Of a DNA stretch of 64,000 bases, positions 12,801-18,473 are shown piece after piece. Made by a program: the position numbers and the translations under genes. Under the pieces are notes generated by a model. The model had not been told where the DNA came from. It ran no database searches and worked only from the letters and a program-made list of their open reading frames with translations. Positions within the stretch are counted from its first letter, which is position 1. Every line of letters begins with the position of its first letter. Location: positions 509,504-573,503 of the forward strand of contig ML992510.1 in the NCBI GenBank assembly GCA_010093995.1. The letters are read 5' to 3'. Origin of the DNA: Elsinoe ampelina (taxonomy: Eukaryota).

Positions 12801-13561
12801 GGAGTCTGGACAGTCGACCAGGTACAATTTAGAGTTGTCTGTATAGCCAGCCTCCTTACTGGGCGTTCAGATTGAAGAGATTATGTATGAATAAGGAATG
12901 TTATACGTATGAGACAAATTTCGCTACAAAGTGAGGTACACTGAAGTCTGATAGGCTTTCGAGGTGCATATATCTGAACTCAACGCACATGGGTGCCACG
13001 TGGTGGAGCAAGAGAAGGTTTGATTTTCATCTCCATCTTTTGCTTCACTCATCTGAAGTGAGGCCCAATTACGGCCGCATCCCTGATGTTCCCTTTCGTA
13101 ATGTAAACATAACAAATATCGTCATTCCCTCCATGCTTATCATACATGGCGACCCCGACCCTTTCCCCATACAACCCGCTCATGTCCCGTGTCATGTCAT
13201 CATGTTGCTATAATGACACACCACACTAGCAAGACTTCATCCTTGCCTTTGCCCCTGCATCGTCCGTGTCGATCTTGTACTATTCCTGCACGGCTCATCT
13301 CCCGCGGACGTCCGAGAGATCCCTGCATGTGATAGCGGTGCTGAGACCGACACCGAGCCGCAAGTACCCTATCCCGGACGGGGTGGGGAGAGCGGCAGGG
13401 AGACAGGGAACATGTGATGTTGAGGATCCGTGGTAGTTCACATGGCCAGATACCATGTTCCGTCTCCTTGCTTGTGCATTAGTCTGCATCAGCGTCAGAG
13501 GACAACACATGTAAGAGGCTGTCGTAGGTATTGCCGCACCATCTACTACATGGTGCGCAGA

Positions 13562-14760
13562 CTAGAGAGTGGCCGTTGGAAAATAGTACTGGTCCCATAG
13601 AAACTCGTAGTCCTCGATAATGCCACCGACCATGCCGAGAATTGGCTTATCCTTGAGCTTTGAAGAAACGCCGTGGATCCAGGTCCTGGTGAATTGCTCG
13701 TAGAACGGACCTCGCATGGCCCACCAGCCGAGACCCCATCCTCGCTTCTTGAGCTCGTCCTTCTCCAGTGCGGTCAAACCTCTGAGTCCGCCCGCACGTC
13801 TGTCTTGAAGGTCCTTCTTCGCCATTTGCCTTGCGCCGTATTCGATTGCGATACCCAGTAACCATGGTTGCCACGATTTCTTGTTCTTGTTCGCGTAGTA
13901 CTGCATGGCGAAAGCGTAGATGACTGGTCGGAGAATGTACATGATCTCTGATATCTCGCCCATGCCGCTCACCCGATGGAGGAGAGCTTTTGGAGGCTTA
14001 ACATCGTCTGCGGTCAACACTTTGGAAAGTAGGTAGCTGGAGATGTCGCCAGATGACGGCAGGGTCGGCAAAGATAGTCCAGTGCGTGGCATGGTCCAGT
14101 TCTGAATCTCCTCTGATCCCTCCGACGGTGGACTCTCCATCTCGTTGTGGTTCTCCTTCTCTTCCAAGGTGCTCGGATCCACTTCGCGCTCGGGTAGCGG
14201 AGGACTCAGAAGTGGTCGCGAATTTGTAAGTCGTAGTAGTAGTAATCGACAGATGGCCTTGAAGAGCTCCAGTAGTGTTACGACCCTCCATCGCGCCTTC
14301 TCGCTCCTGCGCTTCGCTGCCATTTCGCAAAGAAGTTCTGTATATTGAATGACCTGCAGGGTCGTCGCTAATCGTCGGTATGCCGCAGAGTGATTCGACC
14401 AGTATCGTGTGTATCGACCGTGAGGCGAAGGATGCGGTTGCTGGGCTTTTGGGAGTCGCGCGACAGCTCGCGCAAGAAGGGTGTCATGGTAGAGGGAGAG
14501 TAGCTGAACGCCAGAGTGTACTGCATGGATTAGCAAGTGGCGGAGGGTACTCTTCGCCAGCATATCATACACGACTCCGAAGCTATCTCTGCATCGCGAA
14601 AGCGTCCAGGAATGATGTAGGTCAATGACCGCAGCGCACTCTCGATCTGGCCGATAGACGAGGCATTCGATACGATAAACTCTTCATAGAGCTTGCCGTA
14701 CTTTGTCGGTAACGCGAGGAGATCTCCAGCTGCCTGGGTGGACTTGCGATAGGCCTGCAT
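13562..14760 (-). CDS. PEX16: Peroxisomal membrane protein Pex16; 2 exons
   Basis: YEEFIVSNASSIGQIESALRSLTYIIPGRFRDAEIASES|LHSGVQLLSLYHD, IQYTELLCEMAAKR, WWAMRGPFYE. Intron 14521-14570. Confidence 0.92.
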
Positions 14761-15029
14761 CTTGCCTTGTCGATCTGATAGCTACAGCTTCACATCGAGG
14801 GCAGAGGCTGGACATGAACGAGAAGCGCAATGATGAACAATCATGTGGAGGTAGCCGAGGTCGGTATCCAGCCAATCATATGCTGTGGCTGGAAAAAGAC
14901 GGGCGGGACCCTGGAACGGAAATCGCGTGCCATTCTCGGCCTTGGCCCGGTCGCGATCGTTCCAAAGACTTCGAGTGCTGTGCATCTCACATTCATGACC
15001 CGCTTCTCATCACCCGACACGATGCGAAA

Positions 15030-16934
15030 ATGAATAATCAGTACCACCAGTCACCTTACCAGCAGCCCCCATACTATCCTTACGGTGCAGCTGGTTACGT
15101 TGGTGTCTGGCAACCTCAACAACCGGGTCAGTACATTGCACAGGCCCCACCGACACCGCAGGCGGGACAACAGCCTCAACAGACCCAACCTGCAGGGTAT
15201 GTACGCCTTGCTTTATGATCGGAAATGATTCTTACATGAACAGACAACCGCCTGTCACACCCCAGAATGCTGGATCTGTCGGAGAAGGGCCATCACAATT
15301 GTCGGCGGCAGGCAGCGCCACTGAAACGCCGGTAGATCTGGATGACGATGACGATGACCGAGATGGAAATCCTTTCAACGATGTTCTTTGGGATAGAGCT
15401 CAGAGGTAGTCCTGTCAAAACCAGATCATCCCAGGGACCGTTCTAATCAAATTACAGATACACCGACGAGGGTGTGGCACAGCTGAGAGCCAAGTGGCAG
15501 ACAGAATTCGCAAACAAACCCATGCCACCGCCGCCACCAGAAGTCTTTGAGACAAAAGAACAGGCCATCGACTCGTGCAAACGCTTTGCTCGCGAAAATG
15601 GCTACAAACTGACAATAGCACATTCGAACCGCGACAAATCAGGCACGATAAATCGAATCTTGATGAATTGCCAATACGGCGGCAAGTATCGCAACATACA
15701 TCACCTCAACCCGGAAGCCAGGATACGCAATCGGACTAGCCGTAAGACTGGTTGTCCCATGAAGATCCGAATTCAAAAGCGCCGCTTCTCGAGCGAATGG
15801 GTTCTTTGCATATCAAATGCCCAGCACAATCACGCCTCTGATAAGGTACATACTGTCGTAGGCCCGGCAGAATATCCGGATCTTGAAGCTTCTCTACATG
15901 AGTGGCATCTGTCTGAGCTGGCAAAGGGGGAGGTCGTTCATGGAAACACTCTCAAATCCAGAGCCTTGGCGCTTTTTGCCGAGATGCCCCAGTATCACGG
16001 AAAGGAGCCTCCGAACCTAGATCGGAAATGGCTCGATCAGTATCGCGTTAGGTATAATCTGCCGGGTCGACCTATCCGACCGCCCGGGCCGCCCGATCTG
16101 GTAGATTGGAATGACGCCGATGCTGTCGCCGCTGCTACAAATGTGCCAATGGCCAAGCGGACCCGGGAGAACATGGCTTTTGCCGGATTGGAAAGCGCAT
16201 TCGAGGAACCAGCCCTCTTGCGCGCTGTCCAAGGGACTGTCAAGGAGTACATGTCTCGGTATGATGGATCACACGATTGGGATCATATCTTGCGTGTGCT
16301 GTCGATCTGCAAGAAAATCGTCCGGAAAGAGAATGCACCATTTGGCAACATGGCCTACGACCCGAAGCTAGTCTTCTTAGCAGCGTTCGTTGCATGCCTT
16401 CTGACCATATCATTCTTCCACTGACCGACTGTAGCATGTGTCACGACCTCGGCGATCACAAGTACGCAAAGCCTGGAGAAAACCTCGACAACCAAATAGC
16501 TGAATTGCTACTGGAGAATGGCGCCAACCCGGAACTGGCCCTCAAGGTGCAACTGGTTGCCCGCAACGTGTCTTTCTCGAATGAAGTCAAGAATCCTAGA
16601 ATGATGAAAGCGGTGTTGGACCAACATCCTGAACTCGGCGTAGTACAGGATGCAGATCGCCTAGATGCTATCGGAGCGATCGGCATAGGCAGGACCTTCA
16701 CATTCACCGGCGCCTCGAAACCAGAGGGATCAATGCTGGAGACGATTGATCATTTCAAGGAGAAGCTGGAGAGATTGGAGAGCATGATGAAGGTAGGGAC
16801 TACTGAGACACTCTCACTACGTATATACTAACAATCACCAGACAGAGACAGGCAGGCAACTGGCTCGAGAGAGGACGGAGCGATTACAAATGTTCCGCCA
16901 ATGGTGGGATGAGGAATATGAGATCGCCGAATGA
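15030..16934 (+). CDS. Chimeric protein: Q/P-rich N-terminus + FAR1/MULE-type Zn DNA-binding domain + CENP-B/Tc5 HTH + HD-domain phosphohydrolase (YedJ-like); 5 exons
   Basis: Introns 15197-15243, 15406-15457, 16385-16434 and 16793-16841 all preserve frame. FAR1-like: FETKEQAIDSCKRFARENGY..C..GG..R.RTSRKTGCPM..W..HNH. CENP-B-like: YPDLEASLHEW..VHGNTLKSRA..WLDQYRVRYNL. HD: DGSHDWDHILRV, LAAMCHDLGDHKY, VQDADRLDAIGAIGIGRTF, HFKEKL. Confidence 0.85.
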
Positions 16935-17286
16935 TGTTGTTTAGAACCCTCAAAGCATGGCGCCGGTGATAGTTTCGGGACCCTTCTATACCCACACAGT
17001 CATGCCCCCAACCCTGTAGAATAGCTAATGTTAGATTCAACACGCGTGATCATAGTATAGCGTTCGATGTCGTTGGATAGAACATGTGAAACTGTCAAGG
17101 TGTGGCTAGTGACGAAGCTCGTGTGGCGTTTCACGACTCAGCGAACCTTCTCGGACGTCAAGCTTGTTCGGCGCAACTGACAGCTTCCAAAGCTGCGCAT
17201 CCAAAAGTCCGTCCATCTCATTTATCGCCTCACCAACTCATCTCATACCGCGATCGTCATCTGAAACTCATCGAATACCTTCCGAA

Positions 17287-18473
17287 ATGCCGGCAACAAC
17301 GGCGGAGACGCTGTCACTCGTCAATCGAACAGTCTCTGTAGCACCTCTCGTCCTCCTCTCCGCGACAGATCACTTTTCGAGATCGGCAAAAGGCACAAAG
17401 AAGCGCGTGTTGGGAGTGTTATTAGGTCAGAACGATGGCAAGAGTGTGCGCGTGTCAAACAGCTTTGCAGGTAAATACAAGGTCTTCAGCGAGTGATGGG
17501 TCAAGAGACAGTCTGACACCTCCTAGTACCCTTCGAAGAAGACGACAAAGATCCCACAGTATGGTTCATAGACCACAACTACATCGAGTCTATGAACGAC
17601 ATGTTCAAGAAGGTCAACGCGCGGGAGAAGCTCATCGGATGGTATCATTCAGGACCAAAGTTGAGGGCGTCGGATTTGGAGATCAACGAGCTGTTCAAGA
17701 GATATACCCCGAACCCGTTGCTCGTCATCATCGATGTACAGCCAAAAGATGTGGGAGTGCCTACGGACGCATATTTTGCGGTGGAGGAAATCAAAGATGT
17801 GAGACAGCGCTCAAACATGAATGAGGCTAGGAGACACTGATAATCCCAGGACGGTACAACCACAGCGAAGACCTTTGTCCACACCCCATCCACCATCGAA
17901 GCCGAAGAAGCCGAGGAGATTGGTGTCGAGCACCTTCTACGAGATATCCGCGACGTCGCCGTCGGCACACTCTCAACCCGCATCACATCACAACTTCAGT
18001 CACTCCAAGGCCTTCATCTCCGCCTCCAGGACATCGGCAAGTACCTGCAAAAGGTTCTGGACGGCGATCTTCCCGTGAATCACGCCATTCTCGGCAACCT
18101 TCAAGATGTCTTCAATCTCCTCCCCAATCTCTCCACACCAAAGACGAGTCCCACAGTCAACGGCGTAAACCAAGGCGTACCTTCTGGACCATCAGCGTCG
18201 GAGAACAGCGAGCTGGCCAGAGCGATGAGCATTAAGACAAACGATCAATTGATGAGCATCTACCTTTCAAGTTTGATCCGCGCGATCACGGCATTCCACG
18301 ACCTAATCGAGAACAAGATTCAGAACAAGCAACAGGCGGAGGACCGAGACGCAAAGGCCGAGGAGGACAAGATCAAGAAGGAGGACAAGCTGTTGTTGAA
18401 CGGCGAATCAAAGAAGGCCGAGGGCGAGAAAAGCAAGGACGCCAAAGAAGAGAAGAAGGGAAAGAAGTCATAG
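17287..18473 (+). CDS. RPN8: 26S proteasome lid subunit Rpn8 (MPN domain); 3 exons
   Basis: [71 protein letters not shown]. Introns 17471-17526 and 17799-17849. Confidence 0.97.

Follow-up and report, generated by a model that had tools for sequence, protein, structure and literature searches.

A gene on the plus strand of Elsinoe ampelina contig ML992510.1 (assembly GCA_010093995.1) encodes a predicted protein in which DNA-binding domains of two transposase superfamilies are joined to an HD-family nucleotide hydrolase domain. It lies in the 64,000-nucleotide stretch analysed here (positions 509,504 to 573,503 of the contig, hereafter the window; all positions given are those of the window). 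Behind an N-terminal region that is predicted to be disordered, the protein carries a WRKY-GCM1/FAR1-type zinc domain, a helix-turn-helix (HTH) of the CENP-B/Tc5 type and a YpgQ-like HD phosphohydrolase domain. The gene is transcribed as one spliced message, and its architecture recurs in several orders of Dothideomycetes. We favour, at a rough probability of 0.45, the reading that the product is a DNA-bound regulator coupled to nucleotide binding or hydrolysis.

Gene structure and transcripts

The coding region (15030-16934, plus strand) has five exons, at 15030-15196, 15244-15405, 15458-16384, 16435-16792 and 16842-16934, which together encode 568 aa. Enumeration of GT/AG splice sites gave a single sensible open model, the alternative solution altering the final acceptor only, and spliced contigs agree with this model. 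Exon 3 is an unbroken frame in which both DNA-binding domains and the first HD motif are encoded; the corresponding stop-to-stop open reading frame spans 15447-16424 on the plus strand, with shorter coding pieces on either side.

Contigs from four sequencing runs (X1, X4, X5 and X8) were compared with the window over 13500-17500. All four GT..AG introns (47, 52, 50 and 49 nt) are excised in contigs that match the window with 0 differences. Run X1 provided one 1814-nt contig covering 15025-17036, run X4 a spliced contig covering 15059-17016, and run X8 a spliced contig starting at 15025, and in each of these all four introns are bridged; in run X5, joints 1 and 3 were seen, in fragments. The runs have no RNA label on record and their RNA origin was judged from the contigs themselves, which derive from spliced RNA because the introns have been removed. 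The gene is real and is expressed as one message.

An earlier note on this DNA, made from the sequence alone, had argued that the fusion was not an artefact of joining separate gene models. The single exon and the contigs, which span everything from 15025 to about 17036 and bridge all introns, establish this. A wrong joining of two genes, by annotation or assembly, found no support and is contradicted by the shared exon and frame and by spanning spliced contigs from three studies (X1, X4 and X8), so that it can practically be dismissed. Public gene models of related species do err, and in both directions, being merged in Zalaria and truncated in Delphinella and Dothideomycetidae sp. 11243.

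The predicted protein aligns without gaps to its orthologue in Elsinoe fawcettii (D9617_5g069220, P0001), with 546 of 568 residues identical (96%). An internal methionine (…NMAFAG…) was considered as the conserved start of an HD-only product and was rejected, since the other five orthologues have I, P, R, P and P at this position.

Two DNA-binding domains

The insert-containing WRKY-GCM1/FAR1-type zinc domain (15537-15842, plus strand) was identified by Pfam, fold match and ligands. When the 308-aa translation of exon 3 was scanned against Pfam, FAR1 scored 30.3 bits (cut-off 28.1, E 7.2e-7) over exon residues 41-126 (nt 15579-15836), and AFT scored 17.8 bits, under its cut-off of 21.6. The E. 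fawcettii protein reaches 28.2 bits for FAR1. The zinc ligands predicted in the spliced protein are C181 (codon 15669-15671), C209 (15753-15755, within a GCP motif), H233 (15825-15827) and H235 (15831-15833), the last two forming H233-N-H235. In all 20 aligned rows these four ligands (C, C, H, H) are unchanged, and 27 residues lie between C181 and C209.

An AlphaFold 2 model of exon-3 residues 1-215, made with the 20-row alignment, has a predicted local distance difference test score (pLDDT) of 86 and four strands. A helix (143-156) precedes strand 1, and the invariant W224 lies in the strand at 224-230. Three marks set the insert-containing, MULE-associated family of WRKY-GCM1 domains apart: a helix at the N-terminus, a long stretch inserted between the two cysteines, and a W that is conserved in strand 4 (PMC1702500). 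The window domain shows all three. The presence of a MULE-type (insert-containing) WRKY-GCM1 zinc domain is supported by sequence and model, and zinc binding is predicted.

The CENP-B/Tc5-type HTH (aa 249-314; 15873-16070, plus strand) corresponds to the second HTH of CENP-B by Pfam, PDB sequence search and fold. HTH_Tnp_Tc5 scored 38.2 bits (cut-off 22.2, E 1.4e-9) over exon residues 139-204 (nt 15873-16070), and 35.8 bits on the E. fawcettii protein; the PDB sequence search returned Schizosaccharomyces pombe Abp1 (1iuf) at E 9.2e-6. The place that the first HTH has in CENP-B is occupied here by the WRKY-type domain. The ranges first suggested for the two domains, about 15546-15833 and 15870-16060, prove right by Pfam to within about 30 nt. 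Both FAR1 and HTH_Tnp_Tc5 exceed their cut-offs on exon 3, as does HD on the E. fawcettii protein, so the three-domain architecture first read from the letters holds.

The model of this two-domain module was compared with 48,161 PDB representative chains using VIA-align, and with the PDB using Foldseek. The top two VIA-align matches were CENP-B (1hlv_A residues 70-131; Z 9.0, root-mean-square deviation (rmsd) 2.0, 62 residues aligned, 31% identity) and the Aft2-DNA complex (4lmg_A; Z 7.7, rmsd 2.2, 73 residues aligned), each of them solved on DNA; the next row scored 5.6. Foldseek placed WRKY domains at E 0.02-0.06. A search of the ESM Atlas for look-alikes of residues 112-330 gave no usable match.

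The HD phosphohydrolase domain

The HD domain (aa ~359-568; 16203-16934, plus strand) is split by the introns at 16385-16434 and 16793-16841. Exon 4 alone scored 12.4 bits for Pfam HD, against a cut-off of 22, a low score because an intron splits the domain. For the HD, MULE and DDE profile scans, the annotated orthologues P0001-P0006 stand in for the joined protein of the window, and the E. fawcettii protein reaches 33.6 bits for HD (cut-off 22). The spliced window protein has SHDWDH at 381, CHD at 421 and DADRLD at 491, so that the H..HD..D motif is, as had been stated from the sequence, complete after splicing. The relevant codons are H382 (16272-16274), H386 (16284-16286), H422-D423 (16442-16447) and D493 (16655-16657), all on the plus strand.

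The closest solved structures, matched by sequence to residues ~360-568 of the E. fawcettii protein, are Lin1889 (3b57, 2e-20), BH2835 (3dto, 5.6e-19) and YpgQ (5dqv, 7e-18). Bacillus subtilis YpgQ is a homodimeric, mononuclear-Mn diphosphatase of deoxy- or ribonucleoside triphosphates ((d)NTPs), with metal ligands H29/H58/D59/D124 and substrate residues H25/R136/F140/H158 (PMC8177086). In the alignment to 5DQV, where the PDB chain numbering equals the paper numbering +6, the metal ligands H29/H58/D59/D124 correspond to H386/H422/D423/D493, and the substrate-proximal H25/R136/F140/H158 to H382/R505/F509/H525. All eight active-site positions are thus present in the spliced protein of the window. 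Seven of the eight residues are invariant in six of six orthologues, and position 509 is F or Y.

The domain had earlier been called YedJ-like. Membership of the HD family stands, and assignment to the Escherichia coli YedJ equivalog does not: the corresponding model (NCBIfam PRK10119) gave 48.1 bits against a cut-off of 286, and the YedJ structure 3gw7 matches residues 483-554 only (E 1.2e-6). A YpgQ-type HD domain with an intact active site is well supported at the sequence level, and hydrolase activity is predicted. Its substrate cannot be read from homology because a relative, PenF, is a 5'-nucleotidase (PMC11592144).

Complex prediction for two copies of the HD domain scored 0.69, a mark reached in microbes by 20 of 30 solved same-chain pairs and 1 of 23 single chains, and in eukaryotes by 17 of 29 and 0 of 30, respectively. 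The best of three controls scored 0.00. The runs agreed in at least 91% of contacts, with a partner pLDDT of at least 81. An HD homodimer is supported by this prediction, although the pass may reflect memory of, or likeness to, solved dimeric relatives.

Relationship to transposons

FAR1-type domains derive from MULE transposases, and the CENP-B HTH from pogo/Fot1 transposases. Among relatives outside the fusion proteins, those of the FAR1 domain include FAR1+MULE transposases (P0020, P0046 and P0084), and those of the HTH include a pogo-type transposase (P0146, HTH_Tnp_Tc5+DDE_1). The nearest FAR1-type matches also include multi-FAR1 proteins with no transposase part (P0016, P0019 and P0021). 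With such host proteins among the nearest matches, capture from already domesticated host genes is no less possible than a direct domestication of each domain. The earlier proposal of a double transposase domestication is borne out in part: the domain families do include MULE and pogo relatives, and the route by way of two direct events is one of two equally open to the data.

No MULE or DDE catalytic domain was matched by Pfam in the window exons or in orthologues P0001-P0006, and a search for flanking inverted repeats found none; the interval 14700-17300 holds two internal pairs of 15-18 nt with 83-87% complementarity. The absence of a transposase core and of terminal inverted repeats, noted originally by eye, is confirmed in these searches. 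An 18-nt inverted pair (15858-15875 and 16054-16071, 83% complementary) flanks the stretch of exon 3 that codes for the HTH, probably by chance.

The protein might be conceived as a targeted nucleic-acid enzyme, acting on DNA or RNA ends or on nucleotide at transposon ends, for example in genome defence; its transposase-derived domains would then have kept their recognition of such ends. Transposases are among the nearest outside relatives of both DNA-binding domains, and HD domains can be single-stranded DNA phosphodiesterases, as in Cas3 (PMC8177086). The HD domain of the window is of the mononuclear YpgQ type, however, and has the nucleotide-contacting residues of YpgQ. By motif, it lacks the additional histidines that PMC8177086 describes for the dinuclear H..HD..H..H..D type, and there are no repeats or transposon copies near the gene. 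We consider such a nuclease-like role quite unlikely.

Conservation across the protein

Mean pairwise identity was calculated by region at the protein level for six orthologues. It is 46% in the WRKY-type domain, 57% in the HTH, 50% in the helix-PPPPP segment and 59% in the HD domain, compared to 21% in the N-terminus and 26% in the linker. By this measure of sequence, the DNA-binding domains are about as conserved as the enzyme. Within the genus, 14 of the 22 differences from E. fawcettii fall in residues 1-111, three in residues 112-330 (219 residues) and five elsewhere.

The N-terminal region (aa 1 to ~110; 15030-15405, plus strand, exons 1 and 2) is rich in Q, P, G, A, D and Y with an acidic run, and is predicted to be disordered. 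No Pfam family was matched in exons 1 and 2, and in a full-length predicted model residues 1-98 have a pLDDT below 50, the remainder being ordered; the predicted template modelling score of 0.48 is in line with loosely connected domains. It is followed by a conserved helix (LR..W) and an invariant PPPPP (aa 112-140; 15462-15548, plus strand), a segment that matches no Pfam family. L119, R120, W123 and P133-P137 are invariant in six of six orthologues, and the helix at 113-126 has a pLDDT above 90 in the full-length model. The poorly conserved linker between the HTH and the HD domain (aa 315-358; 16071-16202, plus strand) has a pLDDT of 65-78.

Two near-identical annotated copies in Cryomyces minteri (P0017 and P0290) retain the PPPPP, the HNH, the HTH and the HD domain, and have about 40 residues, including both zinc cysteines, replaced by a short S/T-rich stretch. 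This gap is either real decay or a mis-spliced model.

These comparisons bear on whether the DNA-binding part is a decaying relic, that is, a functionless transposon fragment that happens to be translated upstream of an HD gene. The Cryomyces models without zinc cysteines, an apparently disrupted metagenomic copy (P0015) and FAR1 scores close to the Pfam cut-off would fit such a history. Against it, at least three orders and Cryomyces retain the module, with invariant zinc ligands; module identity, at 46-57%, is about twice that of the linker and N-terminus, and only 3 of the 219 module residues differ from E. fawcettii, compared to 14 of 111 in the N-terminus. The AlphaFold 2 fold is also confident, and a relic is accordingly a very improbable explanation.

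Distribution of the fusion

When exon 3 was used to look for longer proteins, six of 3196 candidates were retrieved, all of them fusions, of 554-585 aa and from Elsinoe, Myriangium, Aureobasidium, Bogoriella and two further Dothideomycetes. Searching with the module alone gave 13 of 595 candidates, ten of which have an HD domain on record; the remaining three stop at '..LAA', beyond the first HD motif. Cluster names add Zalaria obscura and Cryomyces minteri to the carriers. The fusion therefore recurs in Myriangiales, Dothideales, Trypetheliales and Cryomyces, and an architecture search across fungi, as the earlier note had suggested, does recover the same three-part protein in several Dothideomycete orders.

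When residues 111-325 were searched exhaustively against 1.84 billion representatives, there were 573 matches at E<=1e-3, 39 at <=1e-10 and eight at <=1e-30. Three of the eight carry Pfam HD, one is cut right after the HTH, and four are fragments that run past the SHD motif and end at, or just beyond, '..LAA', the conserved end of exon 3. The other matches scanned (25 of 150 listed) have one domain only each, and include FAR1+MULE transposases, multi-FAR1 proteins, a FAR1-SNF2 protein, a pogo-type DDE_1 transposase and a CENP-B_N protein. Among the 1.84 billion representatives, no FAR1+HTH pair without HD was found in a protein having clear room for an HD domain. The one candidate exception is P0015, a metagenomic protein of 289 aa with a frame that is apparently disrupted after the start of the HTH.

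Metagenomic open reading frame fragments (P0007-9, P0013, P0018, P0158 and P0160-P0165) either end or read on at precisely the positions that follow '..LAA' and '..MMK', which places the introns at 16385-16434 and 16793-16841 at conserved positions. Two 'short' HD proteins, from Dothideomycetidae sp. 11243 and Delphinella strobiligena (P0166 and P0167), begin at a methionine within the HTH (MPQ[FY].GK.PP...), and are apparently truncated models of the fusion gene, not standalone enzymes.

Standalone HD relatives and the origin of the fusion

The HD part finds 2944 shorter proteins, and the 120 of these that were listed are mostly standalone proteins of about 225 aa with 50-59% identity, in keeping with the view taken originally that relatives of this domain normally stand alone. 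Among the matches listed, standalone proteins come from Botryosphaeriales, Capnodiales sensu lato, Pleosporales and Hypoxylon. In a motif test, 92 of the 120 listed standalone proteins read across both intron places, which hints, subject to the gene callers behind those records, that standalone HD genes have a different gene structure from the fused ones.

A phylogenetic tree was reconstructed from 40 HD rows, with Hypoxylon as the sole non-Dothideomycete row, on a long branch. Clades at the level of orders are strongly supported, and each is all fused or all standalone. The backbone is unresolved: the fused state needs three changes in the best tree, and the starred branches force one. In a smaller tree of 25 rows (without P0157 and 14 standalone proteins), the fused state lies on one side of a branch with support 31/57. 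The trees decide neither between single and multiple origin nor between orthology and paralogy. All fusions share a homologous N-terminal block, from which we infer one fusion event early in the Dothideomycetes. A Dothideomycete HD gene would have gained the FAR1+HTH block once, as an exon-level unit upstream of the enzyme, and the fusion would since have been retained under constraint. The orders with standalone proteins could be explained by later loss or by sorting of paralogues.

The closeness of the standalone proteins raises the question of whether the fusion is a tethered housekeeping enzyme, one that carries on ancestral hydrolysis or sanitation of the nucleotide pool while its DNA-binding domains do no more than bring it to the nucleus, to DNA or to particular loci, with no regulatory output. 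Several observations would suit this. The HD part is 50-59% identical to the standalone proteins of ~225 aa among the matches listed, all eight YpgQ active-site positions are kept, and each order clade of the 40-row tree has a single state, as expected of one gene lineage; more weakly, none of the 120 matches listed, out of 2944, is a standalone copy belonging to Elsinoe, Myriangium, Aureobasidium or Zalaria. On the other hand, two DNA-binding domains conserved like the enzyme exceed what localisation needs, and the orthology behind such an enzyme is undemonstrated, given the unresolved backbone with three changes against one forced. A tethered enzyme is a serious candidate, if on the unlikely side, and we rank the nucleotide-coupled regulator above it.

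A proposed nucleotide-coupled regulator

The DNA-bound regulator coupled to nucleotide binding or hydrolysis is ranked first because two DNA-binding domains are conserved as the enzyme is, because the N-terminus is disordered, and because the enzyme of a WRKY-isochorismatase fusion has been put forward in the literature as a sensor. The gene would be a single-copy-type host gene. The two DNA-binding domains would jointly recognise a specific DNA site, and an HD dimer would present two such pairs. The HD domain would still bind and hydrolyse nucleotide, (d)NTP or a related compound, and the disordered N-terminus may serve as an effector or activation region.

Several points count against this interpretation. 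The fully conserved catalytic residues suit a tethered enzyme equally well as a sensor. The FAR1 cut-off is passed by two of the six orthologues; three fall just under it, and P0002 passes AFT instead. With Foldseek, nothing in the PDB matched at E<=0.001; the best hit was Aft2 (4lmg_A) at 1.2e-3, and CENP-B stood at E 0.21 with a probability of 0.99. The first HTH of CENP-B (CENP-B_N or HTH_ABP1_N) was not found by Pfam at E<=0.1 in the window exons and the six orthologues. The Cryomyces gap and the disruption of the HTH in P0015 may mean that the DNA-binding part is dispensable in some lineages, or else that the gene models are wrong. Finally, the contigs do not mark transcript starts, and a shorter HD-only isoform may exist.

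In a more specific form, the protein would be a eukaryotic 'one-component' regulator: a dimeric (d)NTP pyrophosphohydrolase of the YpgQ type would sense the nucleotide pool and itself switch the DNA binding of the two transposon-derived domains. Alternatively, it would be a genome-defence enzyme aimed at MULE or pogo ends. We regard this bolder proposal as doubtful. If true, the one-component reading would give fungi a counterpart to the nucleotide-sensing repressors of bacteria.

New regulators in eukaryotes arise to a large extent from host genes that have been assembled from the DNA-binding domains of transposases, and the recruitment of such domains into host proteins is known. Their fusion to a metabolic enzyme is rare, and no functionally studied case was found. 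What appears to be new here is that transposase-derived DNA-binding domains from two superfamilies are joined to an apparently active nucleotide hydrolase. The fusion is expressed and has persisted while several fungal orders diverged, and through it a connection of nucleotide metabolism to a DNA-bound function can be tested. To our knowledge, the YpgQ-like enzyme has no known role in any fungus, and the fusion partner would be a first clue to the function of these proteins. The gene is present in tractable yeast-like fungi (Aureobasidium), and the analysis flags several wrong public gene models at the locus (Zalaria, Delphinella and Dothideomycetidae sp. 11243).

Neighbouring genes

The gene is divergent from PEX16 (Pfam Pex16, 356 bits), whose start codon on the minus strand is at 14760. 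The intergenic region between the two start codons (14761-15029) is 269 bp, in agreement with the spacing of about 270 bp given previously. The PEX16 contig ends at 14818 and the fusion contig at 15025; the two are not joined, and the gap is at most about 206 nt. PEX16 has one intron of 50 nt (14521-14570, CT..AC on the plus strand), which is spliced out in the X1 and X4 contigs.

Downstream lies a gene for an Rpn8-type proteasome lid subunit of the MPN/JAB + MitMem_reg type (17217-18473, plus strand; JAB 71.8 bits, MitMem_reg 128.2 bits), with its own spliced contig starting at 17217-17240. In Zalaria obscura, a protein of 878 aa named as a proteasome regulatory particle subunit (P0286) merges FAR1-HTH-HD with JAB+MitMem_reg, probably through an annotation error. 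Because P0286 joins both genes, the Rpn8-type neighbourhood is common to the window and Zalaria obscura. The position of the gene between PEX16 and the Rpn8-type gene also speaks against an active transposon.

Comparison with known systems

The HD domain resembles YpgQ (5DQV/5DQW/5IHY), Lin1889 (3B57) and BH2835 (3DTO) in length, motif order and ligands. A homodimer is predicted here, and YpgQ is one (PMC8177086). Unlike the fusion, all three are standalone proteins of about 210 aa with no DNA-binding domain. Of the three, YpgQ alone has a measured activity, that of a Mn-dependent (d)NTP diphosphatase (PMC8177086). The standalone HD proteins of ~225 aa in other Dothideomycetes and in Sordariomycetes (for example in Diplodia, Cercospora, Zymoseptoria and Hypoxylon) share the same motifs and 50-59% identity over the whole HD part, and their order clades interleave with fused ones in the tree; they differ in being without the ~355 N-terminal residues.

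The likeness to CENP-B, to S. pombe Abp1-Cbh and to pogo-Fot1 lies in HTH_Tnp_Tc5, by profile, sequence and fold. Unlike these, the fusion has the second HTH only, and no DDE_1. Plant FAR1 and FHY3 share the Pfam FAR1 domain family, a likeness at the level of the domain family only. They serve the host as DNA-binding proteins of transposase origin; unlike the fusion, they retain the MULE and SWIM regions and lack both an HTH and an HD domain.

No published description of a FAR1-HTH-HD architecture was found in the literature searched, which covers few subscription journals, and the fusion proteins carry automatic names in public databases. The claim that the architecture is undescribed holds in so far as no paper was found; it has to be qualified by these automatic names and by a WRKY-GCM1-enzyme fusion that is in print (PMC1702500). 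In that paper, 'HD domain', 'phosphohydrolase' and 'pogo' have 0 occurrences, and CENP-B appears in general discussion only.

The fungal WRKY-GCM1 proteins Aft1(Rcs1)/Aft2, Rbf1 and the isochorismatase fusion come closest to the zinc domain part, having an insert-containing domain and no transposase core (PMC1702500). The WRKY-GCM1-isochorismatase fusion occurs in filamentous fungi, and its enzyme was proposed as a sensor (Babu et al. 2006, PMC1702500). The protein described here differs from these proteins in its partners, an HD hydrolase and a second DNA-binding domain from another transposase family.

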